62,452 nucleotides of DNA. Source: Vicinamibacterales bacterium. Lineage in GTDB: Bacteria; Acidobacteriota; Vicinamibacteria; Vicinamibacterales; UBA2999. Shown here in pieces: positions 1,556-55,565 of the stretch (the stretch's first letter is position 1; each line of letters opens with the position of its first letter). The DNA is taken from contig DAINQP010000006.1 of assembly GCA_036742665.1 (NCBI GenBank), forward strand, positions 1 through 62,452, in the 5' to 3' direction. The notes beneath the pieces are model-generated. The model saw only the letters and a list, made by a program, of their open reading frames with translations, was not told the DNA's origin and made no database searches. The position numbers and the translations under genes are program-made.

Positions 1556-3952
<2,397 letters not shown>

Positions 3953-3964
3953 GGCCCGCCCACA

Positions 3965-5134
3965 TTGGCACAAGCGATCGTCTTCTATATTTCCGGTCAC
4001 GGATTCGGTCACGCCTCACGCACCATCGAGGTCATCAACGCAATCCTGGCGCAGCGCCCTGAAACGCGAGTCGGCGTCCGCACGTCGGCACCGCGGTGGC
4101 TGTTCGATCTCACCGTCAAGGGCAAGGTTATGTACAGCACGCTCGAATGCGACACCGGTGTCGTGCAGGTCGACGCGCTGACGCTCGACGAAGCCGACAG
4201 CATTCGACGCGCGCAGTCGTTCCACAGCGACATGGTGACGCGCGCGGCAAGCGAGACGCGTGCGCTGCGCGAGCTTGGGGCGGGGCTTATCGTCGGCGAT
4301 ATCCCGCCGCTGGCCTTCGCCGTCGGCGCGTCCGCAGGCATTCCGTCGATCGGACTCGGCAACTTCACGTGGGACTGGGTCTACGCCGACTACCCGCGAG
4401 TGCGTCTGGCGCCGTCGCTGCTGCCAACCATTCGCGGCGCGTACGCGAAGGCGTCGATGGCGCTGCGGCTGCCGATGTCAGGTGGATTCGAGAGCTTCTC
4501 GAATGTGCGTGACATCCCGTTCGTCGCGCGACACGCCTCACGCACGCGCGACGAGGTCGCCAAGCTACTCAAGATTCCGGGAGACAAGCCGATCGTGCTG
4601 GCCTCGTTCGGCGGCTACGGCCTGACCGCGCTCGACACCGATGTCCTCTCGAAATTCAAGAAATATACGGTGGTGACCACCGTCACCGCCTCGCTGACGC
4701 GGGGACGACGGGATTCACCGGCCACTGAGAAAAAGGGCTCGGTCATCAGCATCAACGAAGAGTCGATGTATGCGACTGGCGTGCGCTACGAGGATCTCGT
4801 TGGCGCGGCTGATGCCGTGGTCACCAAGCCCGGCTACGGCATCGTCTCGGAGTGCATCGCCAACGATACGGCGATTCTCTACACGGCGCGCGGCCACTTC
4901 CCCGAGTACGACGTGATCCTGGAAGAGATGCCGAAGTATCTGCGCTCGGCGTTCATCAACCACGACGACCTTTTCGCGGGCAAATGGGAGTCGCATCTCG
5001 ACAAGCTGCTCGGGCAGGCGAAGCCGAAGAAGAAGCCCGAGACCAACGGCGCCGACGTTGCGGCAGACATTCTGCTCAAGGCGCTCGACAAGCCACCCAA
5101 GAAGCCGCGCGGCCGTCCCAAAGCAAAATTCTGA
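3965..5134 (+). CDS. GT-B fold glycosyltransferase-like protein (resembles the arabinokinase N-terminal domain), with a basic C-terminal tail
   Basis: YISGHGFGHA N-terminal motif; DLVGAADAVVTKPGYGIVSEC nucleotide-sugar-binding region. Confidence 0.7.
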   Translation: MAQAIVFYISGHGFGHASRTIEVINAILAQRPETRVGVRTSAPRWLFDLTVKGKVMYSTLECDTGVVQVDALTLDEADSIRRAQSFHSDMVTRAASETRALRELGAGLIVGDIPPLAFAVGASAGIPSIGLGNFTWDWVYADYPRVRLAPSLLPTIRGAYAKASMALRLPMSGGFESFSNVRDIPFVARHASRTRDEVAKLLKIPGDKPIVLASFGGYGLTALDTDVLSKFKKYTVVTTVTASLTRGRRDSPATEKKGSVISINEESMYATGVRYEDLVGAADAVVTKPGYGIVSECIANDTAILYTARGHFPEYDVILEEMPKYLRSAFINHDDLFAGKWESHLDKLLGQAKPKKKPETNGADVAADILLKALDKPPKKPRGRPKAKF

Positions 5135-5213
5135 TCCGTACTTGCCCTCAGCGCGAGAAGCAGCCGCATTTCTCAAGCACACGATCGAACGCTGCGGCTA
5201 ACCGAAGCGAGCG

Positions 5214-6329
5214 CTAGTTCTCGGAAGGCCTCTCCACGCGATCGATCACGAGCACTTCGATCGGCGCGCGCACGGAATCGAACTTGAGCCCGAGCTGCTC
5301 CTGAACCGCAGTGAACAGCACCGGCGGCGCATTCGGATCGGTCGACGGCGGGATTCTCACACCGAAGCTCGCGAACTGCGTCTCGTCGGGCGTCCAGGTG
5401 AGCGTGAAGTCATAGCGACCCTGCAGTCCGGTCTTGTCGATCACCGGCCGATCGAGCACGGCCAACTGCATCACACCGGCGAAGTCCCCCATCGTCGCGT
5501 TCGTCGCCGGCAGCACGCCGAGGCCTCTGAACAGCAACCCGGGCAACCCATTTGGATTGTTGTCGTTTTTCGTCATCTTCGACCCGCCCGGTGTCACGAC
5601 GAGCGCGTACGCCGACAGCTCCCGCATGTCGCGATGCGTCGTCAACTTGAAGCGATCCTCCAGGAGCGCGCGAATCATGTCGCGCATCTGGTTGACATTC
5701 GGCATCCCCTGCCCTTCGGGCTGGCCGGTGATGTCGTACTTGTCCGATTCCATCCACGACGGCCCTCCGATTACCTGCCGCAGGTGGAGACCGTAGGCGA
5801 AACTGATCAGATCGCTCAGCGCGGTGTTGATGGTCAGGACCTGCCGGCCCTTGATCGTCATCAGCTTGCCTTGCGCGGCTGGATTGCTCGGCTTGATGGT
5901 GGCGACCTCGAACACGGCCTTGGCATCGGCCGCCATGGCCTTCGGCGGCTCGGGGATCTTCCATGCCGTGTCGGCGTTCGCGCGCGCCAGGGTCATCGGC
6001 AATGGATTGTTGCCTTGCGTAAAGGTGCCAGTGACGGAGTTGCCATCTGCGCTGACAGTGCCTTCGAATCTGGCCCCGATGCCGCCGAAGGACATCCTGA
6101 GCGTCGTGCCCTGCAGCGTGATCGGATTGGCCGGGATACCCTGCGGCGTCTGATCGATGCTGTACATCGTCGCCTTCAAACCATCGGCAGTGGTGATGAC
6201 GAGGACGATTCGCAGATCCTTGCCAACCTGCAGAACGCCTTGCCACTGGCCGGCCAGCGTCTGCGACTGCGCCAGCAGGCTGGCCGAGAGCAGGAGCATC
6301 GTCACGATGGACCGCGTCAGTATGCGCAC
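5214..6329 (-). CDS. Acidobacterial soil-associated exported protein (TIGR03435-like) with an extra N-terminal beta domain
   Basis: Signal peptide; FEVATIKPS, GPSWMESDKYDI, LDRPVIDKTGLQGRYDFTL, LFTAVQEQLGLK and VLVIDRVERPSEN motifs. Start moved to GTG 6329, with TACGCT 7 nt upstream. Confidence 0.85.
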   Translation of the reverse strand: MRILTRSIVTMLLLSASLLAQSQTLAGQWQGVLQVGKDLRIVLVITTADGLKATMYSIDQTPQGIPANPITLQGTTLRMSFGGIGARFEGTVSADGNSVTGTFTQGNNPLPMTLARANADTAWKIPEPPKAMAADAKAVFEVATIKPSNPAAQGKLMTIKGRQVLTINTALSDLISFAYGLHLRQVIGGPSWMESDKYDITGQPEGQGMPNVNQMRDMIRALLEDRFKLTTHRDMRELSAYALVVTPGGSKMTKNDNNPNGLPGLLFRGLGVLPATNATMGDFAGVMQLAVLDRPVIDKTGLQGRYDFTLTWTPDETQFASFGVRIPPSTDPNAPPVLFTAVQEQLGLKFDSVRAPIEVLVIDRVERPSEN

Positions 6330-6511
6330 GGCGGGTAGCGTAACATCGGAGCGTGACCGTTCATAGACTCGGAACAATGTCCGGTCGACGACGCATTCGT
6401 CACCGCCGAAGAGGCGTCGACTCATCCGGTCTACGCGCTGAAATACGACCAGGTCGGAGTCGGGGATACCGGCCATCTCGATACAATCAAGCCGCGAGTG
6501 CGGTAATCACG

Positions 6512-22362: not shown

Positions 22363-23619
22363 ATGACCTATTCGCGATCCTTCGACTCGCTTCGGTCGCT
22401 AAGGGCTCCGGCATGGACCGCTGTGGTGGTGGCAGTGCTGGCCACGTCGATGTCGGCACAGGATTGGCCGCAGTGGCGAGGACCGGCCCGCGACGGTGCC
22501 ATCACCTCGTTTCGCGAGCCAGCGACGTGGCCCAAGACCCTGAAGAAGCGCTGGCAGGTTGAGGTCGGCGCCGGCTACGCTGTCCCGCTCGTCGTCGGCG
22601 ATCGCATCTACGTGTTCACGCGCCAGAACGAAGACGAGGTAATGACCGCACTCGATCCGCGGTCTGGGCAAACGATCTGGAGAACCAGCTATCCCGCGCC
22701 GTTCACGATGAATCCGGCCGCCGCGCCCCACGGACCAGGCCCGAAGGCCACCCCGACGTTCGCCGACAACCGCATCTTCACATTGGGGATGAGCGGCAAA
22801 GTCACCGCCTTCGACGCGGCGACCGGGAAACAACTCTGGCAGAAGCCGTCACCGCCGGTTGAACCGCTCTACCACACGGCGATGTCGCCACTCGTGGACG
22901 GCAACAACGTTATCGTGCACGTCGGTGGTCATGACAACGGCGCGCTCACCGCGTTCGACGTCACCACTGGCGACGTGCGTTGGAGCTGGAACGGCGATGG
23001 CCCCGCTTACGGCTCTCCCCTGCTGTTCAACCTCTCGGGCACGCGTCAGGTCGTGACATTCACCCAGAAGTATTTCGTCGGGGTCTCCGCGGCCACCGGC
23101 CAACTCCTCTGGCAGCGCCCGTATACCACGCCGTCCACGACTACGTCGCAGACGCCGATCCTGCACAAGAACATGATCATTGAGATGGGCCGCGGCAACG
23201 GCGTGACGGCCTTCGTCGCCGCCCCGCGCGATGGCAAGTGGATGACCGAGAACATCTGGCACACCGACGAAGTCTCGATGCACTTGAGCGACGCCGTGGT
23301 CGTCAACGGTGTGTTGTACGGGTTGTCACATCTCAACAGTGGCGAATACTTCGCGCTCGATCTCGAGACCGGCAAGGTGCTGTGGAAGAGCGAACCGAGG
23401 CAGGCGGCGCACGCGGCGATCGTCCGGGCCGGCAATGCGATCTTCTCGCTCGAAGACGATGGCGAACTGCTCGTGCTGAGGCACAATCGCACGCGCTTCG
23501 AACCGATCATCCGTTATCCGGCACTCGCGACGACTGCGACCTGGACGCAGCCTGTCATATCGGGAAATCGGATCTTCATCAAGGACGTGTCGTCGTTGAC
23601 GCTGTGGACGACCGATTGA
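22363..23619 (+). CDS. Exported PQQ-like beta-propeller repeat protein
   Basis: DWPQWRGPARDG after the signal peptide; repeated W-containing blades (GQTIW, GKQLW, GDVRW, GQLLW, GKVLW). Confidence 0.88.
   Translation: MTYSRSFDSLRSLRAPAWTAVVVAVLATSMSAQDWPQWRGPARDGAITSFREPATWPKTLKKRWQVEVGAGYAVPLVVGDRIYVFTRQNEDEVMTALDPRSGQTIWRTSYPAPFTMNPAAAPHGPGPKATPTFADNRIFTLGMSGKVTAFDAATGKQLWQKPSPPVEPLYHTAMSPLVDGNNVIVHVGGHDNGALTAFDVTTGDVRWSWNGDGPAYGSPLLFNLSGTRQVVTFTQKYFVGVSAATGQLLWQRPYTTPSTTTSQTPILHKNMIIEMGRGNGVTAFVAAPRDGKWMTENIWHTDEVSMHLSDAVVVNGVLYGLSHLNSGEYFALDLETGKVLWKSEPRQAAHAAIVRAGNAIFSLEDDGELLVLRHNRTRFEPIIRYPALATTATWTQPVISGNRIFIKDVSSLTLWTTD
22378..22405. repeat. REP-like element (CCTTCGACTCGC...GCT.AGG type) within the 5' coding end
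   Basis: tccttcgactcgcttcggtcgctaaggg encodes SFDSLRSLR; recognised from memory of similar repeats, only one copy in the window. Confidence 0.45.
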
Positions 23620-23708
23620 TCTTAGTTTCGACAACGACGGCTCAATGCGGAGGCGCAGAGCACGCGGAGGCCACGGAGGCCGTTACTTCCGAGCACTCCG
23701 TTAACGCT

Positions 23709-24131
23709 TTACGCTAGTTCTTCCGCGGGCGGCGCCAGCGCATTGAAGCGAAAGCTGCCTGAGTCGCGCGCGATGCCGTCACACTCCGCCCACGCGTGAG
23801 CGTCGATGGCAATGCCACTCTTCGCCACACCGAAGCACACGCGCGAGGGTACTCTGCGGCGCTCGAGCAATCCGTACAGCACAACACTCCGACGCAGGCA
23901 GGTTGCTGGAAACGGCAGGACGTCGTACGCGACTGCCACGTACCTATACAGTCGCTGGTACTCGCCAATGGAACCCGTGGTATGGGGTGAGCACGTCAAT
24001 CGCTCGAGCAGTCGCGAGAACGGCATGAATCTGAGTTGGATTTCGACGCAGATGGCGAGCGCGACGGTTTCGAGCGCAGTCGCGTAATCCGACGTGCGCA
24101 TGCGGCGAACGCGGCCGAACCAGAAGCGCAT
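23709..24131 (-). CDS. Lasso peptide B2-like cysteine peptidase (transglutaminase-like fold)
   Basis: TCLRRS..L, FGV, AHAWAECDG give a Cys-His-Asp/Glu triad in 140 aa. Confidence 0.88.
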   Translation of the reverse strand: MRFWFGRVRRMRTSDYATALETVALAICVEIQLRFMPFSRLLERLTCSPHTTGSIGEYQRLYRYVAVAYDVLPFPATCLRRSVVLYGLLERRRVPSRVCFGVAKSGIAIDAHAWAECDGIARDSGSFRFNALAPPAEELA

Positions 24132-24423
24132 AGGTCACGCCTGGTGTGTTCGCGGAGTGCCACGATGCCCCGGTCGCGCAGCTCACCAACGAGGCACGTC
24201 AGGTCGGCGCGTAGCACGTCAGGCGCGACGGCGTATTCCTCGATCATCGTGTCGCAGACGCTGGCGATCGTACGGCCCTGCATGATCAACCGCCACACAC
24301 GGCTGCCGACGGCATCGAGGCCGTAGTACACGCCCGATTCGAGATTGAGGAGGACAGTTTCGCCGGAGAGCTCGCGACAGATGACCGAAGGATGGACTTG
24401 AAAATGATCGGTCGAACCGACAT
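23996..24423 (-). CDS. PqqD-family RiPP recognition element (B1-like); start codon missing in frame, possibly frameshifted
   Basis: FQVHPSVICRELSGETVLLNLESGVYYGLDAVGSRVWRLI...EEYAV....LRADL..LVGELRDRGIV. The nearest ATG (24423) is in another frame, and the ORF overruns B2 by 136 nt. Confidence 0.75.
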
Positions 24424-24442
24424 CCCTGCGGATGTCACGGTA

Positions 24443-26260
24443 TCACGGAACGGACGTAACGCTTCTGACGAAGGCGTTCTCGAGCTCGGTCAGCGCTCTC
24501 AATTTGGCACGCGCTTCATCTGCCTCGCCAGCCGTCTTGAACGGTCCAACGCGCACGAGGTACAGGAGACCGCGTGACGCTTCAGTGGGAACCTCGAATG
24601 CCGGGAATCCCGACTGTGTCAGCTGCTGCACCAGGGATTGTGATCGATCGTGACTCGAGAAAGCGGCGACCTGCACCACCCATGTATCCGATGAGGCAGG
24701 TGTGGCGGCAACTGGCGCGATCGCCGCTTGCACTACGCTGGTCGCGTTTGTCACTGGGATTCCGGGTGCCGCTGGTGCGGTCGCTGGTGCTTGCGGCGGT
24801 GTTGCTGCTTGCGCGGACGCTGACGCTGGTGCGGGCAATGGACGCGAGCGCTGCGCCGTCACGGCAATGCCTCCGGCGACCAGAACGACGGCCATACCCA
24901 CGAGAGCAAGGCCCGCCGTCTTCAACCAGGCAAAGCGCCCTTCACGCCGTACTTCACGATCCACTCGCCACTTCCAGAGCGGCGCAGTTGACGCTCCTTC
25001 ACCGACCGGAGCAGGCGCGGTCTCCCACTCACGCTTCGGCAAGGTGGCGGGAATGTCGAGGAGCGCATGGAGTTCGGACGCCGTTTCTGAAGCCTCAGGC
25101 GTGCGGCGCCGATCGAACAGACCGGTACGATTTGTCGCGGCCGCTGACGCCGGTGCAGAGGCTACGGATGCAGGCGGCGAGAACGACGGTGCAGGTACAG
25201 AGAACGGCGGCACGGGCGCAGGAGCCACCAGTACCGACGGCGGCGCGGAGACAGCCACCGGCGTCGGCTCAGACGCGATCGGCCGAATCGGAATTCGCTC
25301 GACCACCTGGCCGCCCATGGAAATCTGTCCGGACACGATTTGCAGTTCGTCGATCGCTTCAGAGACGAGCGGCGGACCAATCACCGAGACACGCTCTGTC
25401 CGGGCGTGCGACATCGCGCGATCGCAAACGAGGTTGACGAGCCGGGGCACACCATTCGACGCCGCATGGATCAAATCGATCGCCGCCGATGCAAAGGCGA
25501 TGCGCTCCTTGGTGCCGCCAACGGTCGCAAGACGATGCGCGACATATCCAGCGAGATCATCCCGAGTCAACGGTCGCAGCTCGCACCGCATCGTGACGCG
25601 CTGATCGATCTGGCGCATCTGGAATTGCTTCAGCCGCGTCTGCAGTTCGGGCTGGCCAACCAGGACAATCTGCAGCAAACGGCGTCCCCCTTCAAGCTCG
25701 GACAGTGCGCGGATCTCCTCGAGGAGTGGCTGCGCGAGATGCTGCGCCTCGTCGATGACGAGTACCGCGAACGCATCCACCGACTCCAACGAGGTCAGGA
25801 ACTCGAAAAGCTGATAGCTCAGATCCGGCCGCGACGCGGTCGCGAGTCGCCCGCGGCGCAGGTCGTCCACCGAGACCTCGCCGAAATCCACGAGCAGCAT
25901 CCGCAGCAGGTCTTCACGCGACAGCTGCGGATCGGGGACGAAGGTCGTGAAGGTCTTGCGATCGAGCTGATAGAGCGCAGCACGACACAGCGTGGTCTTC
26001 CCGGTCCCCATCTCGCCGGTGAGGACGATGATGCCCTCGCGGCGCCGAATGGCGGAGAGCAGGTCGTTGAGCACGCCGCTGTGGGCCGGGCTCTTATACA
26101 AAGAGCGCGGATCCGTGGAGAGACTGAACGGCTTGGCCTTGAGGCCGTAAAACGGCTCGTACGTCAGGGCGCCGGAGGTGGCAGCGGTCTGCGGACCGTC
26201 CTCGATGCCGGCATCCGAGGCGAGCACGTTGTCCGGGCTATAGCCCTTCCACTGGCTCAT
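24443..26260 (-). CDS. ExeA/GspA-like AAA+ ATPase with Pro/Ala linker and C-terminal SPOR domain
   Basis: YEPFYGLKAKPFS, Walker A GEMGTGKT, VIDEAQ, LVGQPEL, GVPRLVN; C-terminal WVVQVAAFS...YLVRVGPF; start uncertain (26260 or 26344). Confidence 0.9.
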   Translation of the reverse strand: MSQWKGYSPDNVLASDAGIEDGPQTAATSGALTYEPFYGLKAKPFSLSTDPRSLYKSPAHSGVLNDLLSAIRRREGIIVLTGEMGTGKTTLCRAALYQLDRKTFTTFVPDPQLSREDLLRMLLVDFGEVSVDDLRRGRLATASRPDLSYQLFEFLTSLESVDAFAVLVIDEAQHLAQPLLEEIRALSELEGGRRLLQIVLVGQPELQTRLKQFQMRQIDQRVTMRCELRPLTRDDLAGYVAHRLATVGGTKERIAFASAAIDLIHAASNGVPRLVNLVCDRAMSHARTERVSVIGPPLVSEAIDELQIVSGQISMGGQVVERIPIRPIASEPTPVAVSAPPSVLVAPAPVPPFSVPAPSFSPPASVASAPASAAATNRTGLFDRRRTPEASETASELHALLDIPATLPKREWETAPAPVGEGASTAPLWKWRVDREVRREGRFAWLKTAGLALVGMAVVLVAGGIAVTAQRSRPLPAPASASAQAATPPQAPATAPAAPGIPVTNATSVVQAAIAPVAATPASSDTWVVQVAAFSSHDRSQSLVQQLTQSGFPAFEVPTEASRGLLYLVRVGPFKTAGEADEARAKLRALTELENAFVRSVTSVP

Positions 26261-26382
26261 GTCGTACGCATCTATCGGCGCACGCGGTCTGCCATGACAG
26301 CCCACCGCCGGCCATTCGCGGCATTTACGGCCGGATCTCTGCATTCGTGCGCAACTGTGCGTGCCGGGGTGCGCCCTACACG

Positions 26383-26433
26383 CCGGCTGAAGCCGGACAT
26401 TACTCGTCGGGTCCGGGTCAAGCCGGACACTAC
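26383..26433. repeat. Two tandem GTAG-type REP palindromes (minus orientation)
   Basis: ccggctgaagccggacattac and gtccgggtcaagccggacactac, reverse complements of the 12350 element. Confidence 0.75.
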
Positions 26434-26458
26434 TTGGGTGCGAATGGGACCGACGTGG

Positions 26459-27145
26459 TCAGTTTTTGATGCAGGTAACCAGCGACCAGATTGGCGGGAA
26501 GCTGACTTTTTCGATGGAGATGGGTGTGAGCTCTGATTGCGCGAGGAATCCGGGAAGGTCGAGATCGGCTTTGAAGCCGATGTGAACGGTGAACGGCGAA
26601 ATCGCCTGCTCGACACGCGCAACGACCGGCGTCCGGCTCCTGAAGTGATTCAGGATCACGATCTTTCCACCAGGCCGGCAGACACGACGCATCTCGTTCA
26701 CGACGCGGACGGGATCGGACACCACGCTGATCACGTAGGGCGCGTAGACGATGTCGAAGGAGTCGTTGGCGAAGGTGAGATTCGCCGCATCCATCTCCTG
26801 CAGACGCACGTTCGTGACGCCCTTCTTGACCACACGCTCGTGAGCCTTCTCGAGCATGAGGGCGGAGAAATCGATCCCAGTGACGTGGCAGTGTTCTGGA
26901 TAGAGCGAAACGTTGATGCCGGTGCCGACGCCGACCTCGAGGATCTTGTCGCCGGGCTTGATGTCCATGCGCTCCAGCGCGATGAGACGTCCCGGATGGA
27001 GCGTAGGACCGAAGGTCAGGTCGTAAACCTTGGCGATCTTGTCGTAGACGCGTTCAACGAAATCGTTTTCAACTGCGGTAACCGACAGCGCCCGTGACGC
27101 CGCGTCGGACCCGACAGTAGTGTCTTCTGGCTCGAACAGCGCCAT
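26459..27145 (-). CDS. Class I SAM methyltransferase, PmtA-like phospholipid N-methyltransferase
   Basis: VYD..AKVYDLTFG, ILEVGVGTG, MDA.NLTF, YVISVVSDP, VCRPGG.IVILNHF. Confidence 0.75.
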   Translation of the reverse strand: MALFEPEDTTVGSDAASRALSVTAVENDFVERVYDKIAKVYDLTFGPTLHPGRLIALERMDIKPGDKILEVGVGTGINVSLYPEHCHVTGIDFSALMLEKAHERVVKKGVTNVRLQEMDAANLTFANDSFDIVYAPYVISVVSDPVRVVNEMRRVCRPGGKIVILNHFRSRTPVVARVEQAISPFTVHIGFKADLDLPGFLAQSELTPISIEKVSFPPIWSLVTCIKN

Positions 27146-27255
27146 TCGCGGGCTCCATCTCCGGTCAGGACGTTCAATAGGTCCTGCCCTTAAGCTGTTG
27201 ACAGACTCGACCTTCGGCTACACACGCGATTCGCCCGCGCGCAGCGCCGTTCGGC

Positions 27256-27284
27256 ACTATACAAGCCCCGGCGGGTCGGAACAA
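27256..27284 (-). promoter_or_regulatory. Putative sigma70 promoter for the PmtA-like gene
   Basis: Minus strand TTGTTC-N17-TATAGT. Confidence 0.4.
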
Positions 27285-27314
27285 GCTCTGTTTACACGAC
27301 CGTTCATAGACATT

Positions 27315-29132
27315 TCACTCCAGCACGTCGAGCGCGCGGTCGATCCGGCCCGGCAAAGCGGTCACCAGAACACCCTGCACGCGCTCCTTCAGGGCCGAGC
27401 AGAGGTTTCGCGCAATAGCGATTCCTTCCGCAGTGGCGGCCTCGGGGCTCTTGGCGCGGCGCATGCGATCGAGTACTTCATCGGGAATGTGCGATCCCGG
27501 CATTTCGTTGGCCATCCATTCGGCATCGAGCACACTGTCGAGCGGCCGCACCCCGAGAAGCACGGGAAGCTTCGCCTCGTCGAGGCGCTTCTCCACCCGA
27601 TCGAACGATCGCGGATCGAAGATGGGCCGGGTGACTACGAAGTCAGCTCCAGCCTCGAGCTTGTACTCGAAGCGCCGCATTTCACGATCGAGATCTTCAG
27701 CGCCGGGATTCACGGTCACGCCAATGTGGAACGCAGTCGGCTGGCCGATCGCGTGTCCGCCGACGTCGGTGCCGTGATTGAACCGCGACACGGCATTGAG
27801 CAGACCGATCGAATCAACATCGACGACGGCGGTCGCATCGGAATAATCGCCGACCAGCGGCACATCGCCGGTGACCAGGACGATGTTGCGAACGCCCATC
27901 GCGTGCGCGCCAAGCAGATCAGATTGCAAGTCGAGCAGACTTCGATCGCGGGCTGAGCATTGCAGCACGGTTTCGATGCCCGTCCGCTGCTGTATCAGAA
28001 CGGCCAGCGACAACGCACTCAGCCGCGGCCCCGTCTGCCCATCGGGAATGAGCACGGCATCGACGCCCTTCACCCGCACGGCGCGGGCCTGCTCGATCGC
28101 CTCTTCGCTCAGGTGCCCACGCGGCGGTACCAGTTCCACGACCGTGACCCAGCGGCGGCGCGCCAGCGCATTCGCCAGAAAGGACTTCTCTGCGCGTGCG
28201 ACGGGCGTCACGACGGGTGCAGTGTGCACGGGTGCCGTCGGACGAGCCGGTGTTTTCAACGCCGACCCGCTGGTGATGGCCGCCTTGATCTGCGTGATGT
28301 GCTCGGGCGTCGTGCCGCAGCAGCCTCCGACCAGGCGTACGCGCGCGGCCGTGAATCGCCGTGCGTAGGAGGCCATGTATTCCGGTGAGGTGAGATACAG
28401 CGTGCGGCCTTCGATGTCGCGCGGGCGTCCGGCATTCGGCTGCGCGGACAACCGTGCCGACGTGAGTGCCGCCATGCGCTCCAGTGTTTCGAGCATGTGC
28501 GCCGGCCCAATGCTGCAATTGATGCCGATGACATCAGCGCCTGCCGCCTCCAGCGCCGGCACGAACTGCTCGGCGGGCGTACCGTCGAGGCTGTTGCCCT
28601 CGTCTTCGATCGTCATCTGCGCGACGATCGGCAGGGAGCAGATGCTCTTGACCGCGGCGATCGCGGCCACGATCTCGTTGACGTCGCGAAACGTCTCCAA
28701 CATCAGCAGATCGACACCGCCCTCGACCAGCGCCTGCGTCTGCGCTCTGAAGCAAGCTTCGGCTTCGTCCGCGGCCGTCTTGCCCCACGGCTCGATGCGC
28801 AGCCCGAGCGGACCAATCGCCCCTGCGACATACACGTTCTTGCCAGCGGCGTGGCGCGCGAGCTGCGCGCCCGCGCGATTGATGTCGCGCATCTGGTCAT
28901 CCAGACCGAATGACCGGAGCTTGATGCGATTCGCGCCGAAGGTGTTGGTCTCAATGACATCCGCGCCGGCACGCACGTAATCGTCGTGCACGGCGGACAC
29001 GCGGGATGGATCAGTGAGGTTGAGGGCGTCGAAGCAGCGATTGATGAAGACGCCCTGCGCGTAGAGCAGCGTGCCCATCGCACCATCGCAAACGAGCACG
29101 CGCGTGTCGAGGGCGTCGAGAAAGGGCGTCAA
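27315..29132 (-). CDS. yitJ: Bifunctional homocysteine S-methyltransferase / methylenetetrahydrofolate reductase (YitJ-like)
   Basis: DGAMGT, IETNTFGAN, GINCSIGP, GGCCGTTPEH in the N-half; ELVPPRG, RDRS, VTGD, GADFVVTRP in the MetF-like C-half. Confidence 0.92.
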   Translation of the reverse strand: MTPFLDALDTRVLVCDGAMGTLLYAQGVFINRCFDALNLTDPSRVSAVHDDYVRAGADVIETNTFGANRIKLRSFGLDDQMRDINRAGAQLARHAAGKNVYVAGAIGPLGLRIEPWGKTAADEAEACFRAQTQALVEGGVDLLMLETFRDVNEIVAAIAAVKSICSLPIVAQMTIEDEGNSLDGTPAEQFVPALEAAGADVIGINCSIGPAHMLETLERMAALTSARLSAQPNAGRPRDIEGRTLYLTSPEYMASYARRFTAARVRLVGGCCGTTPEHITQIKAAITSGSALKTPARPTAPVHTAPVVTPVARAEKSFLANALARRRWVTVVELVPPRGHLSEEAIEQARAVRVKGVDAVLIPDGQTGPRLSALSLAVLIQQRTGIETVLQCSARDRSLLDLQSDLLGAHAMGVRNIVLVTGDVPLVGDYSDATAVVDVDSIGLLNAVSRFNHGTDVGGHAIGQPTAFHIGVTVNPGAEDLDREMRRFEYKLEAGADFVVTRPIFDPRSFDRVEKRLDEAKLPVLLGVRPLDSVLDAEWMANEMPGSHIPDEVLDRMRRAKSPEAATAEGIAIARNLCSALKERVQGVLVTALPGRIDRALDVLE

Positions 29133-42729: not shown

Positions 42730-44736
42730 TCAGGGCACGATCTGAAAATCGGTGATCTGCTTCTCTCGCCCCTGCGTCACCTCAATCGCATAATCTCCTG
42801 CCGCAAAGGGCGCCAGCATCGCATCAACGACGATCCATCGAAACGCGCCCGACGGATCGGCGCGTTCGCTGACTTGCGCGGGCACCGAAAGCTCGTTGTG
42901 ATTGCGATCGAGGATGCGCGCGCTCGCCTGCGTCGGCACTGACGTTGCGAGCTCCAGCTTCAGGCGATCGCTGCGCATGAAGCGCGGATCTGCCGTACGC
43001 ATATAGCGAGGACCCGTGGAAAGCCCACGTCTTGATATGACTGCCTCGCCCAGCGCGGATCCATCTCTCAGGACCACGCGAGCCGTGCTGGTGAGCTCGG
43101 CTTTTTCGTCCGCCTGCGAGCGGATGCGCACGCTGACAGCGTACTCACCGGCGGCGATCCCGCCGCTTTCAGGCACCTGAATGCTGAAGGGCCCCTCGTC
43201 GGGCTTCAAGTCAACCGTACGCGTCATCACCTCCTGGCCGCGCGCATCGACCACGACAACTTCGGCCTCGGCGCCCGCCGTCCATGCCAGCTGGCGACGT
43301 GTCTGGTAGTCCAGTTCGCCGACGACCCAGAAAGCGCCACCACGCGTGTTTTCAGGAGAATTTCGAACCCAGGTTGACGTGCGAATCCGGAAGGCCGATC
43401 GCGCATTCGCAGGAGTGGAGGCGGCGAACGCTTTGCCCGCCACGCCGCGTGAGCCGGCGCTGCTGACCAGATCATCGGCCGTTCGTCCGCGGTAGCCGCG
43501 CCGGACGCGAACTTTGACGCCCTCGCGCTTGACGCGAACGGTCGTCGCACGAAACCGTCCGTCCAATTTTGTATTGGATGAGGAGTACGTCAGCAGGTAG
43601 TAGGACGAGAGATCGTCCACGATGCGGGTGATCTGTGTGTCGAGATTAGTGGTATCGGCGATCACGACACCGTCGGTGTTATCGGCGATGAACCGGAGGC
43701 TGTCCTGCCGCGACGCAGCGTTCGTGCTGGCGTCTCGCTTGGCGGCAGAGCCGTTGGCGCCGCCCGCGGGATCGGCGGTGAGTCCGCGCGGATCGATGGC
43801 ATAGAAGGAGATGTTGCTGCGGTTGGCGTTCTCGGTCACCGACCGGAGACGCTGGCTGTGATCGAGCGCGGCGAGGGCCACGCGGTCGGCCTCGCACTCG
43901 ACGTAGTTGACCTCTTTCGAACCGCCGGTCGGTTCCGACTTCTCCTTGTCGTTCTCTTTCTCCTTGTCTTTGTCTTTGTCCTTCTCCTTCGACGGCCTGC
44001 GCAGCAGTCGATCGACGAGACCACCCTGGTCGGGCTTCTGCGCGGCCGCCAGACTTTCGTTCTCACGAAACAGTACCCAGCCGTCGGAAATCGTAAGAAC
44101 CGCTTTCCGCTCGTCGCGAACGCCGCCCAGATCGGCCACGAGGCCGTCGAGCACGTCGAGCGTCAGCTTCTCACGGCGTCGTGCCTTCATTTCATTGCCG
44201 GGCGTGTTGCCATTCGAACCGGCTGCGGCATAGCAGTTGTCGTACAACGTCTCCTTCTGATCGCGACGCTCAGCCCGCCCTCCCCGCGCCCAGGCCCAAT
44301 CGCTCTGCATGATGTTGGAGATAACCGTTGGCTTGCGGCCGAACTTCATCTCGCTGGGCGACATCTCCGGGGTCATCACCGCGACCATGTCATCCGGACC
44401 GATCACGCGATCGAGGATTTTGATGAGTGGCAGCCGCATGCTCGAGGAGGCCTCGATCTGCGTGTTGTAGGTATCGAGAAAGATCACGAACACCCTGGCT
44501 CGCGACGATCCGGGAGCGCCGACCTGGACGTGCTCAAACGCGTCGATCGTCTGCGGAACGCCATCCTCGAGCAGTTCGAGATCGTTGGCCTGCAGGTCGT
44601 CGATGGCCTTCCCGTCGAGCGAGGCGTACACGTCCACGCGGATCGCGTTCGTGCCGGGTCGCACTGATGGACCGCTTTGCGCTCGCAGCGACACGGCCGC
44701 GAACAGGACGAGCAGGGTGAGGGCAGCTCGACGCAC
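42730..44736 (-). CDS. Acidobacterial VWA-domain exported protein, paralog 1
   Basis: IRVDVYA, ELLEDGVPQTIDAF, FVIFLD, KAVLTISDG, FYAIDPRGL, YYLLTYSSSN.KLDGRFR; real start GTG 44736. Confidence 0.85.
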   Translation of the reverse strand: MRRAALTLLVLFAAVSLRAQSGPSVRPGTNAIRVDVYASLDGKAIDDLQANDLELLEDGVPQTIDAFEHVQVGAPGSSRARVFVIFLDTYNTQIEASSSMRLPLIKILDRVIGPDDMVAVMTPEMSPSEMKFGRKPTVISNIMQSDWAWARGGRAERRDQKETLYDNCYAAAGSNGNTPGNEMKARRREKLTLDVLDGLVADLGGVRDERKAVLTISDGWVLFRENESLAAAQKPDQGGLVDRLLRRPSKEKDKDKDKEKENDKEKSEPTGGSKEVNYVECEADRVALAALDHSQRLRSVTENANRSNISFYAIDPRGLTADPAGGANGSAAKRDASTNAASRQDSLRFIADNTDGVVIADTTNLDTQITRIVDDLSSYYLLTYSSSNTKLDGRFRATTVRVKREGVKVRVRRGYRGRTADDLVSSAGSRGVAGKAFAASTPANARSAFRIRTSTWVRNSPENTRGGAFWVVGELDYQTRRQLAWTAGAEAEVVVVDARGQEVMTRTVDLKPDEGPFSIQVPESGGIAAGEYAVSVRIRSQADEKAELTSTARVVLRDGSALGEAVISRRGLSTGPRYMRTADPRFMRSDRLKLELATSVPTQASARILDRNHNELSVPAQVSERADPSGAFRWIVVDAMLAPFAAGDYAIEVTQGREKQITDFQIVP

Positions 44737-44780
44737 AAGGAACCCCAGGTGACAGGCTGGCTTAGGGAGTGTACTCTCGA

Positions 44781-44911
44781 CAACTCCAACTACCAACGCC
44801 CAACTTCCAACCACTCCCAAATCCCAATTCCCAAGCACCCTTGAGTTGGCGCCTTGTGAGTTATTGGGAGTCGCGAGTGGTTGGGAGTTGGGATTTGGTC
44901 CTTGGGAATTG
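44781..44911. repeat. Long inverted heptamer repeat (CTCCCAA / TTGGGAG) between the VWA paralogs
   Basis: caactccaactaccaacgcccaacttccaaccactcccaaatcccaattcccaa ... ttgggagtcgcgagtggttgggagttgggatttggtccttgggaattg. Confidence 0.85.
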
Positions 44912-46972
44912 TCAGGGCACTACACGAAACGAGGTCATCTGCTTCATCTGTCCCTGGGTAACCTCGATGGCGTAATCGGATGGACCAAATGGCGCGAGGC
45001 CGAGATCGACCACCACCCATGTAAAGCCAGCCGCATCGGGGCGGGTGCTGACCTCGACGGGAACGGAAATCGTCTGGCCATTGCGATCGATCACGCGCGC
45101 CGTGGCCGACTCGGTAGACGAAGTTGCCAATTCGAGCCGGATGCGCTCGTTCCGCTGGAACCGCGGGTCGACCGTTCGCAGATGCTGCGGGCCCGTGGTC
45201 GGTCCACGACGCCACATGAGCGCATCGCCAAGCGATGGCGGCGATTTTACGGAAATGCGAGCCGTATCGATCAGAGCGAGTTCCCCTTCCATTGGAGAAC
45301 GCAGACGGACGCGTATCGTGTAGTCGCCCGACTGCATGCCGCCGGCATCCGGCAACTGGACAGTGAATCCGCTCTCACCGGGTTTGATTTCGAGGCGTTG
45401 CGACGCCACCTGCGCATTGTCTGAACCCGTCACGGTGATCTCAGCCTGCGCACCGCGCGACCATGCCGGAAGGCGCTTCGTCTGCTGATCGAGTTCACCG
45501 ACGATCCAGACCGTACCACCCGAGAGACCCGCGCGTGACCACGCGGCGGCGCGAATCCTGAACTGCGCCCGCGCATTGAAATTGACAGCCGGTGGTGCGA
45601 CAGTCGCTGGCGCACCGGTCGTGGAGCCTCCTCCGGCTTCGAGCGCGGCGGGACCCACTCCACCTCGCGAGAGCTCTTCGGTCGTGTAGCCGCGGTAGCC
45701 CTTACGCGCACGCACGGTGACGCCGGGGCGCTTGAGCCGCACCGAGATCGATCGAAACCGCCCATCGAGCTTGGTATTCGTCGTGTAGTACCCCATCAAG
45801 TAGTACGACGACAGATCGTCGACGATCCGGCGTAGCGCGGCATCGATGTTGTTGGTGTTGATCACGGACGTGCCGTCGGTATCAGCCGCCAGAAATCGCA
45901 GCGCCTCCTGACGGTTCCGAAGATTCGCCGCGTCCTGGATTGGCGATGGCGGCTGCTCGGGGCCGATCGGCGCATCGAACGCCACGAGGCCGCGCGCGTA
46001 CACGGGATAGAAGGTGACATTGCCGCGATTGGCGGTCTGCGTGAGATTCTGCAGGCGGAACTCGTGGTCGAGCGCTGCCAATGCCATCCGGTCAGCCTCG
46101 CACTGAACGCGAGGTGATCCTTGTAACTGCCCTGTATCTGACGGCTGCGGGCGGGGCGGCCGCAGCAGAACGTCGCCGGGGCGCAGGCCCGTATTGTCTT
46201 TGTCGAACGCCCGCGCGAGCTTCGAGTCAGAACGATAGATGACCCATCCTTCGGTGACCGCAAGAACCGCTTTGCGCTCCTCGCGGATGCCGTTGAGGTG
46301 CACCATCAGATCTTCGAGCGCATCGAGCGTCAGCTTCTCGCGACGGCGCGCCTTCATCTCCTTCGCAATGCCGACTGTCTGGAACGCGTCGGGATAACAG
46401 GCGTCGTAGAGATCTTCCTTTTCGTCGTTGTCAGAGCCTGGCAGACGGCCGCGCTTTCCCCACAACCACTCGCGCTCCAGCATCCTTGAGATGACTGTGG
46501 TCTTGCGCTGGAACGTGATCTCGGTTGCCGCCATCTCCGGCGTCATCACCGCCACCAGGTCGTCGGGCCCGAGCACGCGGTCGATGAAGTTGATGAGCGG
46601 CTGCCGCATCGTCGCCGAGCCTTCGATTTGCGTGTGGTAGGTATCGAGGAAGATCACGAACACGCGGGCCCGCGGGTCGCCCGCCATCTGGCGGCTCTGC
46701 TCGATGGTGTTCGGCTCGACGCGGAGCTCCTGCGGAATCCCGGTGCGGACCCGGACGTGCTCGAACGCCTCGATCTTCTGAGGCACGCCGTCTTCGAGGA
46801 TCTCGACCTCGCTCTCCTGGATGTCGTCGATGGGCTTGCCGTCGCGCGTGGCATACATGTCGACGCGGATGTACGCCGCGCCGCTGCGGAACGTCGGCTG
46901 GTTCTGCCTGTTCTGCGCGTTCAGCGAGACCGCTGCAAGCGCGAGCACGATGAGAAGGGAGATTCGGCGCAC
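44912..46972 (-). CDS. Acidobacterial VWA-domain exported protein, paralog 2
   Basis: QPTFRSG.AYIRVD, FVIFLDTYHTQ, RRREKLTLD, YYLMGYYTTNTKLDGRFR; colinear with paralog 1. Confidence 0.87.
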   Translation of the reverse strand: MRRISLLIVLALAAVSLNAQNRQNQPTFRSGAAYIRVDMYATRDGKPIDDIQESEVEILEDGVPQKIEAFEHVRVRTGIPQELRVEPNTIEQSRQMAGDPRARVFVIFLDTYHTQIEGSATMRQPLINFIDRVLGPDDLVAVMTPEMAATEITFQRKTTVISRMLEREWLWGKRGRLPGSDNDEKEDLYDACYPDAFQTVGIAKEMKARRREKLTLDALEDLMVHLNGIREERKAVLAVTEGWVIYRSDSKLARAFDKDNTGLRPGDVLLRPPRPQPSDTGQLQGSPRVQCEADRMALAALDHEFRLQNLTQTANRGNVTFYPVYARGLVAFDAPIGPEQPPSPIQDAANLRNRQEALRFLAADTDGTSVINTNNIDAALRRIVDDLSSYYLMGYYTTNTKLDGRFRSISVRLKRPGVTVRARKGYRGYTTEELSRGGVGPAALEAGGGSTTGAPATVAPPAVNFNARAQFRIRAAAWSRAGLSGGTVWIVGELDQQTKRLPAWSRGAQAEITVTGSDNAQVASQRLEIKPGESGFTVQLPDAGGMQSGDYTIRVRLRSPMEGELALIDTARISVKSPPSLGDALMWRRGPTTGPQHLRTVDPRFQRNERIRLELATSSTESATARVIDRNGQTISVPVEVSTRPDAAGFTWVVVDLGLAPFGPSDYAIEVTQGQMKQMTSFRVVP

Positions 46973-53201: not shown

Positions 53202-55565
53202 ATGTCAGCTGCGGATTACGAGAAGCTCGGACTCTTCTATCTCGGCAAACAACACGATCTCGACGCAGGTAAACGCCGCGACGACCTCCTCCTCTACGAC
53301 TCCCGCGATCTGCTGACCCACGCAGTCATCGTCGGCATGACCGGCAGTGGCAAGACCGGCCTCGGGATCACGCTTATCGAGGAAGCGGCGATCGACGGCA
53401 TTCCGGTCCTGGCCATCGATCCGAAAGGCGACCTCGGAAATCTCCTCCTGACCTTCCCCAATCTCGCCGCATCAGACTTCGCGCCGTGGATTGATGCCGG
53501 CGACGCGCAGCGTCACGACACGACCGTTGACGCATATGCGGCCGAAACGGCGCAACGCTGGAAGGCCGGGCTCGCAGAGTGGAATCAGGACGGCGCGCGC
53601 ATCGCGAAGCTGAAAGCCGCGGCCGATGTGACCGTCTACACGCCGGGCAGCCGCATCGGCACTCCACTCGCCATTCTGGGTTCGCTCGGACCAGCGGCCG
53701 CCGAGTCGGGCGAGGAGGCGCAATCGGACATCGCGACCACCGCCGCAAGCCTGCTTGGCCTGGCCGGGCTCGACAATGTACCGCCGCACAGCCGAGAGCA
53801 GGCACTCGTCTCCGCGATCCTGTCGAACCGTCCGCCCAATGCGCCTGCCGATCTGCGCTGGCTCGTGCAGCAGATTCAGCGTCCCTCTTTCGACAGCATC
53901 GGTGTGCTCGACCTCGAGACGTTCTTCCCGGCGCGCGACCGTCAGGAGCTGGCGCTGCGGTTCAACAGCGTGCTGGCGGCGCCGGGGTTCGATGCGTGGA
54001 GCGCTGGCGACCCGCTCGACGCGGCGTCGTTGCTGTTTACTCCCGCTGGCAGGCCGCGAATCGCCGTCATCTCCGTCGCGCACCTCGACGATGCGCAACG
54101 GATGCTGGTGGTGTCGTTGGTGCTCAATGCCGTGTTGCGATGGACGCGCCGGCAGAGCGGCACGAGCTCGCTGCGCGCACTCGTCTACATGGACGAAGTG
54201 TTTGGTTACCTCCCGCCGGTCGCGAATCCCTCGTCCAAGCTGCCACTGCTCACGCTGCTGAAGCAGGCGCGCGCGTTTGGCGTGGGCCTGGTCCTCGCGA
54301 CACAGAACCCGGTCGATCTCGATTACAAGGCGCTCTCGAATGCCGGGACGTGGTTTCTCGGCAAGCTGCAGACCGAGCGCGACAAAGCCCGGATGCTCGA
54401 TGGTCTCGATGGCGTATCGTCGGGACTCGATCGGCACACGATCGATCGCGCGCTGTCATCGCTCAAGGCTCGCGTGTTCCTGATGCACAACGTGCACGAG
54501 CAGGCCCCGATTGCGTTCGAGACCCGATGGGCGTTGTCGTATCTGCGCGGGCCCATGGGACGCGATGAGCTGCGACGATTCACGCGCGCGTCGGCGACGA
54601 GCACAGCGCCGACACCACCGTCGGTTCCGGCATCGGTAGCCGCCTCGTCTCCCGCATCGACCGTAAAGCCCGTCGTTCCCGCCGGGATCGAGGAGTACGT
54701 GCTGCCGACCGAAGGTGACAGCCCCGCGAAATACGCACCTGTGCTCTACGGCGCGGCCCGCGTGCAGTACGCCGACACGAAGCGGGACATCGATGTGACG
54801 CGAGCCGTTCAGGCCATCGTCCCATTCACCAACGGCCCGATCCCTGTCGATTGGGAGCATGCCGAGGAAACGCCGCATTCGCCCGAGACACTCAAGCCGC
54901 CGTCGGCAAGCGCGGCGGCGCCGCATCAGCCGCTTCCGCCAGCGGCGCTCGACAAGAAGCGATACGCCGCGTGGACCAAGGACTTCGAGCAGTGGCTGGC
55001 TCGCACGCCGCTCAAGATCTATGCGGTGCCGTCGATGAAACTCGTCTCGAAGCCTGGAGAATCCGAACGAGATTTTCGGGTACGCATTCAGCACGCTGGC
55101 CGCGAGATGCGCGACGCGGCGGTCGAGCAACTTCGGGAGCGGTACGCACCGAAGCTGGCGCGTCTGCAGGAGAAGGCGCGAAAAGCGGAAGACGCGCTGG
55201 GCAAGGAACAGCAGCAGGCGTCACAGCAGAAAGTGCAAACTGCGATTTCTTTCGGGACGACGATGCTCGGCGCATTGTTGGGACGCCGGGCGGTGTCGCT
55301 GTCCACGCTCGGGCGGGCGACGACGGCGGCGCGAGGGGTCGGCCGTTCGGCCAAGGAGACTGAGGACGTTGCGAAGGCTCAAGCACGCCTCGACGAGGCG
55401 CAGGCGGAGCTGGGCGCGCTGGAGGCTGAACTGCAGCAGGAAGTGGCGGCGCTCGAAAGTGCGGCACCGGGCAGCGTCGCCGTCGAAACGATCGAGATCA
55501 AACCCAAGCGAGGCGGCGTGGACGTGAGGATCGTCGCGCTCGCCTGGGAACCGATCGCCTCGTAG
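53202..55565 (+). CDS. HerA/FtsK-superfamily P-loop ATPase (DUF87/DUF853-like) with C-terminal coiled coils
   Basis: THAVIVGMTGSGKT, IDPKGD, VYMDEVFG, RAFGVGLVLATQNP.D.DY; CATAAT 7 nt before ATG. Confidence 0.85.
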   Translation: MSAADYEKLGLFYLGKQHDLDAGKRRDDLLLYDSRDLLTHAVIVGMTGSGKTGLGITLIEEAAIDGIPVLAIDPKGDLGNLLLTFPNLAASDFAPWIDAGDAQRHDTTVDAYAAETAQRWKAGLAEWNQDGARIAKLKAAADVTVYTPGSRIGTPLAILGSLGPAAAESGEEAQSDIATTAASLLGLAGLDNVPPHSREQALVSAILSNRPPNAPADLRWLVQQIQRPSFDSIGVLDLETFFPARDRQELALRFNSVLAAPGFDAWSAGDPLDAASLLFTPAGRPRIAVISVAHLDDAQRMLVVSLVLNAVLRWTRRQSGTSSLRALVYMDEVFGYLPPVANPSSKLPLLTLLKQARAFGVGLVLATQNPVDLDYKALSNAGTWFLGKLQTERDKARMLDGLDGVSSGLDRHTIDRALSSLKARVFLMHNVHEQAPIAFETRWALSYLRGPMGRDELRRFTRASATSTAPTPPSVPASVAASSPASTVKPVVPAGIEEYVLPTEGDSPAKYAPVLYGAARVQYADTKRDIDVTRAVQAIVPFTNGPIPVDWEHAEETPHSPETLKPPSASAAAPHQPLPPAALDKKRYAAWTKDFEQWLARTPLKIYAVPSMKLVSKPGESERDFRVRIQHAGREMRDAAVEQLRERYAPKLARLQEKARKAEDALGKEQQQASQQKVQTAISFGTTMLGALLGRRAVSLSTLGRATTAARGVGRSAKETEDVAKAQARLDEAQAELGALEAELQQEVAALESAAPGSVAVETIEIKPKRGGVDVRIVALAWEPIAS

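Follow-up and report, generated by a model that had tools for sequence, protein, structure and literature searches.

The closest described counterparts of the locus analyzed here, which lies in a stretch of 62,452 nucleotides from a Vicinamibacterales bacterium (hereafter the window), are the split-B lasso systems TbiB1/TbiB2, TfuB1/B2 and BsfB1/BsfB2. The locus resembles them in that a gene for a PqqD-fold RRE (B1) is followed, 3 nt on, by a gene for a Transglut_core3 Cys-His peptidase (B2), and the precursors of its relatives carry the Y(-17)xxP(-14)xL(-12)...T(-2) leader. In contrast to these systems, B1 of the window is a pseudogene, the cyclase and precursor genes are deleted and the cluster of the window's clade is spread over 14–19 kb instead of being contiguous. 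Kinase-containing clusters for phosphorylated lasso peptides, for example those of paeninodin and Bradymonas (bsf), are likewise related; according to published work, B1 is required both for cleavage by B2 and for kinase activity (PMC10368454). In the relatives of the window an HPr-kinase-like gene stands by the cyclase and precursor genes, and the precursors have Ser/Thr-rich tails (KLKTKTI). The relatives differ from these clusters by an additional PRMT-like methyltransferase, by a core cluster in which we saw no nucleotidyltransferase or ABC transporter and by a predicted kinase that is only weakly similar to TIGR04352 (37 bits), while the window itself retains none of the kinase, cyclase, precursor and methyltransferase genes. 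Finally, orphan RREs and degraded RiPP clusters have been described with RRE-Finder (PMC7470986). The RRE of the window similarly lacks a nearby core enzyme or precursor, but the former place of its missing partners is known exactly (at approximately position 5135 of the window), and a natural population provides a record of the decay. The B1/B2 pair of the window very probably represents the leftovers of a split lasso-type RiPP cluster of which the distal half was deleted, with B1 reduced to a pseudogene and B2 to a relic.

An earlier note on this DNA had described a PqqD-family RRE and a B2 peptidase as neighbors on the minus strand, and profile searches agree with it. The RRE frame matches Pfam PqqD (PF05402) with 64.8 bits (E = 9.3e-18; cutoff 23.4), and its best NCBIfam matches are lasso PqqD chaperone models, although below their cutoffs (NF033536, 49.5 versus 80; NF033530, 42.1 versus 70). 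The nearest solved structures to the B1 family are TbiB1 (5v1u, E = 8e-12) and TfuB1 (6jx3). The B2 gene (23,709–24,131, minus strand) is an intact open reading frame of 140 amino acids that matches the lasso leader peptidase model NF033537 (59 bits; cutoff 33) and Transglut_core3 (PF13471; 61.2 bits, E = 1.1e-16; cutoff 26); a PDB sequence search with B2 gave no matches. It retains Cys78 (TCLRRS) and His112 (AHAW). In the family alignment, no complete homologue lacks Cys78, and the AHAW around His112 is common to all except the AHSW variants within one subclade. The columns past the His, searched for the acidic third residue of the triad, are variable. The tail of the window B2 ends with a TAA 11 codons ahead of the stop used by the nearest subclade. 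Within the clade, both genes are under purifying selection, with a median pairwise dN/dS of 0.20 for B1 and 0.31 for B2.

B1 extends from its former start to its former TGA over positions 24,135–24,427 (minus strand) and is 89% identical to intact homologues of 97 amino acids. A free-standing 97-aa B1 is encoded by all of approximately 30 close relatives, which form a tight family with the N-terminus MDV(G/A)STDQF. In the 27 close loci in which the region is visible, an ATG follows the spacer ccgTGAtaccgtgacatccgc and nearly all have a TGA at codon 98. In the window, the start codon is lost by an ATG to AGG substitution (24,425–24,427, minus strand; T>G at 24,426). As claimed before, the RRE frame has no ATG, GTG or TTG from the TGA of the upstream gene (24,445–24,443) down to GTG 24,331, and initiation at the latter would cost the RRE domain its first 32 residues. 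An extra G at 24,423, once suggested as the lesion because it would give a protein starting with MSGSTDHF..., does not agree with the homologues: their N-termini fit the existing frame, which therefore needs no correction, and the mutation affects the ATG alone. The suggested -1 shift near 24,140 did materialize, as a 1-nt deletion in codon 95 (24,143–24,145, minus strand; CAC AC- CAG GCG TGA, where relatives have CAC ATG CAG GCC TGA). The ancestral TGA (24,137–24,135) indeed lies 3 nt ahead of the B2 ATG; after the deletion, the frame crosses the B2 start and stops only at 23,998–23,996. Relative to these 27 loci, the AGG start and the 1-nt deletion are confined to the lineage of the window. 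As both the start codon and the frame are lost, B1 does not constitute a translatable gene here. The alignments point to a real pseudogene that arose by ordinary gene decay, not to a new fusion or recoding event.

What has been lost around B1/B2 becomes visible in other Vicinamibacterales. Their cluster consists of a PRMT-like methyltransferase, B1, B2, an Asn-synthase-like cyclase, an HPr-kinase-like kinase and a precursor with a YxxPxL...T(-2) leader. Contiguous six-gene clusters come in two arrangements; the clade of the window has a split cluster, with the methyltransferase-cyclase-kinase-precursor half 14–19 kb from B2. This distal half is found on the same contig as B2 in two members of the clade (L003 and L004) and, at the same range of distances, in the more distant L005. 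No cyclase occurs within 10 kb on either side of B1/B2, which is why we at first entertained the idea that the pairs of this clade were true orphans selected for a new, perhaps ExeA-linked function; a search for cyclase homologues, which placed the distal half on the same contigs, made us abandon it. The kinase-like protein carries an H...G..G.GKS...DD motif and adjoins the cyclase and precursor genes. The precursors are 48–51 amino acids long, with a leader that matches NF033528 below the trusted cutoff (22 versus 33) and a core with Asp at position 9 or 10 and A, S, N or T as residue 1. The best NCBIfam match of the cyclases is the lasso cyclase NF033535, again below the trusted cutoff (259–287 bits versus 525). 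Given these scores and core residues, the threaded lasso is a putative product only. A Pfam search with two neighboring proteins in L007 and a 653-aa open reading frame of L017 assigned no families.

By tblastn and blastn, the window is collinear with two relatives (L101 and L102) apart from a gap of approximately 4.1 kb, where the relatives have the precursor gene together with those for the kinase, cyclase and methyltransferase. On the left, the deletion is bordered by a conserved 389-aa gene (3965–5134, plus strand; 96% identical to L101 12,968–14,137) that has no Pfam or NCBIfam matches and flanks the precursor gene in relatives. The scar itself (5135–5201, plus strand) consists of the junction followed by the last approximately 21 codons (PYLPSAREAAAFLKHTIERCG*) of the methyltransferase gene, a remnant at 5136–5201. 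To its right lies a DUF3738 gene (5214–6476, minus strand; Pfam DUF3738, E = 1.6e-60; 76% identical to L101 7485–8603), which flanks the methyltransferase gene in relatives. The junction is 100% identical in three further contigs (L103, L104 and L105), and the site of the deleted half is approximately 18.5 kb from B1/B2. The statement that 62 kb contain no lasso cyclase or precursor stands: an Asn_synthase domain is absent among the 10 largest open reading frames of the window, and tblastn searches of the window with three Asn synthases from the relatives' lasso clusters, the kinase and the precursor found nothing. A complete lasso BGC is thus absent, as the window has neither the cyclase (C) nor the precursor (A). 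The YxxPxL-leader precursor that would be cognate to B1, present in relatives, was deleted at approximately position 5135.

Taken together, B1 and B2 form one half of a lasso-type RiPP cluster that in Vicinamibacterales lies beside an ExeA-like/SPOR gene. We infer the biochemical roles from homology: B1 may bind the YxxPxLxxxGxxxxxT(-2) leader of the precursor and B2 may cut it off, the Asn-synthase-like cyclase would close the ring on Asp9 or Asp10, and the other two proteins are a predicted HPr-kinase-like peptide kinase and a predicted PRMT-like methyltransferase. In the split layout of the clade, B1-B2 stand just downstream of the ExeA-SPOR gene and the other block 14–19 kb away, past a block with an efflux pump and a two-component system. 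Presumably, the precursor is acted on in trans by B1/B2. An action in trans was among the earlier proposals. It presumably holds for the intact relatives, with their remote cyclase half; for the window it is inapplicable because the distal half is deleted and B1 is broken. In this lineage, the deletion took the precursor, kinase and cyclase genes and most of the methyltransferase gene, and B1 lost its start and frame, while the B2 frame stayed open. The reading of the locus as a decaying RiPP remnant, which the note had also offered, gains support from the lesions in B1 and the deleted half. B2 is then most likely a relic that decay has so far spared, and we infer that it is of no further use.

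A more far-reaching combination of ideas is conceivable as well. The Vicinamibacterales cluster could be a new lasso subclass (PRMT-like methyltransferase, kinase, ring on Asp9/10, non-Gly residue 1) that functions although split over 14–19 kb. The RND efflux pump encoded between its halves would then export the product, the two-component system encoded there would regulate the cluster, and the conserved TGnTAnnnT motif would drive a leaderless B1 transcript; B2 of the window could have been kept beside ExeA-SPOR for some other envelope-related proteolysis. We consider it rather unlikely that all of this holds jointly.

There is also a slim chance that B2, possibly with a little B1 made from a non-canonical start, serves in trans another lasso or RiPP cluster outside the window. 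The reading frame is intact without any inactivating lesion seen, the catalytic Cys and His are kept, five other contigs encode the identical protein, the clade already runs B1/B2 in trans over 14–19 kb and, with only 62 kb of the genome visible, a second lasso cluster could sit beyond. Against this, the deletion has removed the cognate distal half, B1 lacks a usable start, related strains show further B1 frameshifts and B2 enzymes require their B1 (PMC10368454). The conservation of B2 is no counterweight: near-identical strains differ in this gene by a single, synonymous substitution, and they are too close for its conservation to be informative.

That the lesions are errors of assembly or sequencing, and that the real genome has an ordinary, ATG-started and unshifted B1, is very improbable. 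MAG-type data can contain errors, frameshifts abound in two related long-read contigs (L001 and L002) and the 3' lesion sits in a short C run. To weigh this, contigs from other samples were chosen for encoding an identical B2 and an identical 389-aa protein. Three of them, L098 (ENA), L099 (Logan SRR5215204) and L100 (JGI 3300010036), are 99.7–99.9% identical to the window and contain both B1 lesions. Since three other samples and projects have yielded contigs with an identical AGG and an identical 1-nt deletion, the assembly indel that had been envisaged is for practical purposes excluded. Two of the three carry additional frameshifts of their own within B1, the only indels across alignments of 4–6 kb, and 4 of the 12 differences between L100 and the window fall inside the 294-bp B1. 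Moreover, a substitution is untypical of assembly mistakes, the genes on either side of the pair retain their full length in the window (ExeA, 633 aa; beta-propeller, 418 aa; hydrolase, 316 aa) and the partner half of the cluster is missing too, at a junction that three other contigs show in identical form.

The gene upstream of B1 (24,443–26,344, minus strand) encodes an ExeA-like AAA+ ATPase with a C-terminal SPOR domain (Pfam AAA_22, E = 3.7e-25; SPOR, E = 1.2e-15). It resembles ExeA/GspA-type and XrtA/PEP-CTERM ATPases in that its AAA_22 domain aligns along the entire TIGR03015 model and in its C-terminal peptidoglycan-binding domain, which is SPOR and not of the PF01471 type found in ExeA. 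In L001 and L002 the gene lies beside an EPS locus. Its score (218.6 bits) is below the equivalog cutoff of TIGR03015 (XrtA/PEP-CTERM system-associated ATPase; 324.5), and the protein is not assigned to that family. Full-length homologues adjoin B1/B2 in Vicinamibacterales loci. The gene's stop, TGA at 24,445–24,443, is in phase with the RRE frame, as had been noticed, and the same phase runs on beyond it as YRDIRRDVGSTDHFQVHPSV... This in-frame state occurs in approximately 25 of 27 close relatives, each with its own ATG and a 97-aa product, and is an incidental, ancestral trait common to the clade. A functional tie between ExeA-SPOR and B1/B2, another earlier proposal, was not found: the genes are positional neighbors within Vicinamibacterales only. 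Many of the more distant relatives (approximately 15 complete loci) have ExeA and B2 on opposite strands and convergent, and homologous clusters in other phyla lack ExeA altogether. A programmed readthrough of the TGA that would yield a functional ATPase-SPOR-RRE fusion, tying leader binding to a peptidoglycan-binding ATPase, has hardly any probability left, despite the in-frame TGA, the highly conserved 15-nt spacer between the ExeA stop and B1 and the constant vicinity of ExeA-SPOR in the order: close relatives have an intact, separate B1 instead of a fusion, the spacer of L031 and L039 is 16 nt long and puts the stop out of frame, in L002, L004 and L038 the TGA is followed by a further in-frame stop (TGA TAA), the same-strand arrangement is not conserved, the RRE frame has a 3' frameshift itself and others in near-identical strains, and an Rfam scan of the whole window gave no matches, thus no recoding or SECIS element.

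In annotations, the RRE that lacks a start and shares the frame of the ATPase gene should be labelled a pseudogene; it reflects neither recoding nor fusion, and B2 of the window is no evidence of lasso peptide production. As a decaying relic, the locus is of low to moderate interest. It does offer a clean, datable case of RiPP-cluster decay in an uncultured soil lineage, in which the core half was apparently deleted first and the RRE inactivated afterwards, with population variants adding frameshifts. A by-product is an uncharacterized lasso-type cluster family with a methyltransferase and a kinase that is widespread in Vicinamibacterales. This family appears to tolerate a split of 14–19 kb, and cluster-mining tools that use short windows would call its B1/B2 pairs 'orphan'.

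A last observation concerns the region just upstream of B1. The sequence TGATACCGT (24,437–24,445, minus strand), found by regex, is an extended -10-like motif (TGnTAnnnT) of putative function. It overlaps with the stop codon of the ExeA gene, and 9 nt separate its end from the B1 start position. A sigma-70 scan of 23,500–26,700 called no promoter and did not flag this motif. Under the strict regex, 33 of the 54 distinct Vicinamibacterales-type upstream regions have it 6–10 nt ahead of the chosen B1 start, compared to a background expectation of approximately 0.002 per 8-nt window; in most of the remaining regions, the script chose a GTG inside the motif as the B1 start. A scan of the same 23,500–26,700 region also gave one terminator-like site (26,448–26,460, plus strand), a yield that does not exceed the chance expectation.

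The B1/B2 pair in the window is what is left of a split lasso-type RiPP cluster after deletion of the core half. On the minus strand, an ExeA-like ATPase with a C-terminal SPOR domain (26344-24443; 633 codons; AAA_22), to which TIGR03015 (XrtA/PEP-CTERM-associated ATPase) aligns over the full length with a score below cutoff (218.6 vs. 324.5 bits), ends in a TGA (24445-24443) in phase with the RRE frame reading YRDIRRDVGSTDHFQVHPSVICRELSGETVLLNLESGVYYGLD... This frame carries a PqqD domain (Pfam, E = 9.3e-18), has lasso PqqD chaperone models as top NCBIfam matches (scores under their cutoffs) and stays open until a stop at 23998-23996, overlapping the B2 gene. ATG, GTG and TTG are absent from it upstream of GTG 24331, which already lies within the domain. 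The lasso B2 peptidase (24131-23709, minus strand; 140 aa) matches NF033537 (59 bits; cutoff 33) and Transglut_core3 (E = 1.1e-16). No Asn_synthase domain occurs in the window's ten largest ORFs, and tblastn of the 62 kb with the cyclases, kinase and precursor of relatives gave zero matches. Since frame, domain and tblastn checks all agree with it, the initial observation of a start-less RRE in frame with the ExeA TGA, paired with B2 and without a cyclase or precursor in 62 kb, is confirmed.

Searching proteins with the RRE frame as query retrieved a close-knit family of free-standing proteins, almost all 97 aa long, which begin with MDV(G/A)STDQF and end with REHMQA. DNA alignments of 27 close loci in which the region is visible give the intact B1 layout as ...ccgTGAtaccgtgacatccgc-ATG-GAT-GTC... 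with a TGA at codon 98, typically followed by the B2 ATG after 1-4 nt. In the window, a T>G substitution turns this ATG into AGG (24427-24425), and codon 95 is one base short (24145-24143: CAC AC- CAG GCG TGA). The earlier note had thus placed a -1 shift correctly near 24140, while its missing G at 24423 is in fact the start-codon substitution. With two lesions in B1, a confirmed pseudogene, and the core half deleted, its proposal of a decaying RiPP remnant holds. B2 is an intact ORF that is probably idle. It stops 11 codons early at a TAA relative to the nearest subclade, in a tail that is variable across the family, and the alignment shows catalytic Cys78 and His112 to be intact. At this TAA (23709-23741 vs. 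L001 10717-10753), the nearest subclade reads on as ...PHVVNEQLRFL before its stop, and the sequence 3' of it has strongly diverged. The preserved ORF and catalytic residues leave some residual uncertainty as to whether B2 serves another cluster beyond the 62 kb. Against this, B1 is broken, and in a kinase-type lasso cluster both cleavage by B2 and efficient phosphorylation have been shown to require B1 (PMC10368454), so that an isolated B2 is unlikely to be useful.

Five other contigs encode a B2 protein identical to that of the window. The three that were compared with it (ENA ERZ27257110, Logan SRR5215204 and JGI 3300010036) are 99.7-99.9% identical across 4.2-6.4 kb, and all three show the AGG as well as the 1-nt deletion. 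Indels in these alignments are confined to B1, where +G at 24230 (Logan) and -A at 24339 (JGI) are further frameshifts; four of the 12 differences between the JGI contig and the window fall within the 294-bp B1, or ~7% of the aligned length. Such a pattern marks B1 as a pseudogene that is decaying in a natural population. An assembly indel, as also suggested earlier, is ruled out, as both lesions recur in three other contigs and the genes flanking B1/B2 are full length.

Scans of genome and metagenome contigs yielded 95 related loci, which were classed by tblastn and Pfam/NCBIfam. In many Vicinamibacterales loci whose B1 shares 52-60% identity with that of the window, B1 and B2 lie inside a compact cluster with a PRMT-like methyltransferase (MT; PrmA and PRMT_C domains), an Asn-synthase-like cyclase (C; best NCBIfam match lasso cyclase NF033535, 259-287 bits, below cutoff), an HPr-kinase-like kinase (K; H...G.GKS...DD motif) and one or two precursors (A) of 48-51 aa of the form M..K.PYssPrLVTYGDi.qLTQ|asatGkKADGGGKLKTKTI. 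The arrangement is either ExeA> B1> B2> ... <MT C> K> A> (L006, L007, L050, L061) or <A <K <C MT> B1> B2> <ExeA (about 15 loci, e.g., L052, L056, L066-68, L072-80). The precursor leader fits the canonical lasso pattern Y(-17)xxP(-14)xL(-12)...T(-2), with a weak NF033528 match, and among solved structures the lasso RREs TbiB1 and TfuB1 come closest to the B1 family. Precursor genes lie at L006 8413-8562, L007 13850-13963 and 14990-15115 (two precursors), L052 5848-5702, L101 12786-12941 and L102 12808-12960; across these, the leader consensus is PYxxPxLVTYGD/NIxxLTQ, of canonical lasso type, and the core is [A/S/N/T]x7-8 D GGGKLKTK(T/S)xx, with Asp at position 9 or 10 and never Gly at residue 1. 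With Asp at core position 9 or 10, a first core residue other than Gly and scores under trusted cutoffs, the family's product appears lasso-type, with residual uncertainty as to a true threaded topology. In an Acidobacteria MAG (L011 7113-9251), a B2 domain is apparently fused N-terminally to the cyclase in one 712-aa ORF. Locus L082 (3259-7648) has ExeA, a 112-aa B1, methyltransferase and kinase, with B2 and cyclase not detected, and may be an independent instance of partial cluster loss.

In the close relatives of the window (B1 at least 66% identical; about 30 loci), just ExeA> B1> B2> is found within +/-10 kb. Both genes are under purifying selection (median pairwise dN/dS 0.20 for B1 and 0.31 for B2), which is explained by a distal half elsewhere on the same contigs: three matches of a cyclase search lie on those of L003, L004 and L005, where <MT C> K> A> lies downstream of B2 by ~19 kb (L003, L004) or ~14 kb (the more distant L005). 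With the precursor encoded that far away, B1 and B2 would presumably act in trans in intact relatives. The intervening genes match the window's (beta-propeller, hydrolase, O-methyltransferase, two-component system, RND efflux pump), and in L003 and L004 the block sits between DUF3738 and a 389-aa gene plus Lon. In the L005 genome, a DDE transposase gene (L106 11641-13011) lies ~2.7 kb from the precursor and may be relevant to rearrangement of the cluster halves.

The window is collinear with the distal-half regions of two relatives (L101, L102) save for the missing distal half. Lon (1556-3952; 95% identical to relatives) is followed by the 389-aa gene (3965-5134; L101 12968-14137; 96% identical), which adjoins the precursor gene in split-cluster relatives and whose protein has no Pfam or NCBIfam matches. 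Directly after it come the ~21 final methyltransferase codons (5136-5201; PYLPSAREAAAFLKHTIERCG and stop) and then the DUF3738 gene (5214-6476). The missing stretch of about 4.1 kb covers the precursor, kinase and cyclase along with codons 1 to about 358 of the methyltransferase. Three other contigs, among them NCBI GCA_035265845.1, match the window's junction at 100% identity. Because substrate and cyclase are gone, loss of B1 would be the expected next step. The window locus is ordinary gene decay; a useful by-product is the uncharacterised methyltransferase/kinase lasso-type family, widespread in Vicinamibacterales.

The proposed ATPase-SPOR-RRE readthrough fusion is rejected: relatives with the in-frame TGA have B1's own ATG, L031 and L039 have 16-nt spacers and hence an out-of-frame ExeA stop, L002, L004 and L038 read TGA TAA, ExeA and B1/B2 are convergent in the second arrangement, and no recoding RNA element was detected. 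Almost the entire clade shares the in-frame TGA because a 15-nt spacer is conserved. Neither did a functional tie to ExeA-SPOR survive the neighbourhood comparison, given the convergent loci and the lack of ExeA in homologous clusters of cyanobacteria, Erythrobacter and other Acidobacteria, outside Vicinamibacterales; the adjacency is best read as an inherited position within this order. The reason for the conserved spacer may instead be an extended -10-like motif, TGnTAnnnT (24437-24445, minus strand; same position in L001-L005 and L019-L094), which was not called as a promoter in a sigma-70 scan. Its end lies 6-10 nt ahead of the B1 start at almost every Vicinamibacterales locus, whether the upstream gene is ExeA or a methyltransferase, which suggests a putative promoter of B1's own and a leaderless mRNA.

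Elsewhere in the window, two adjacent minus-strand ORFs (42730-44838, 702 aa; 44912-46972, 686 aa) match no Pfam family at E <= 1e-5, and a 787-aa ORF (53202-55565) has a marginal HerA/DUF87 match only. Ahead of ExeA-SPOR, the window encodes a PmtA-like methyltransferase and a homocysteine S-methyltransferase/MTHFR fusion (26459-29132), unlike L001 (1-7500) and L002 (1-8100), where an EPS locus takes this place (GNVR/CbiA tyrosine-kinase-like co-polymerase, Bac_transf, glycosyltransferases).
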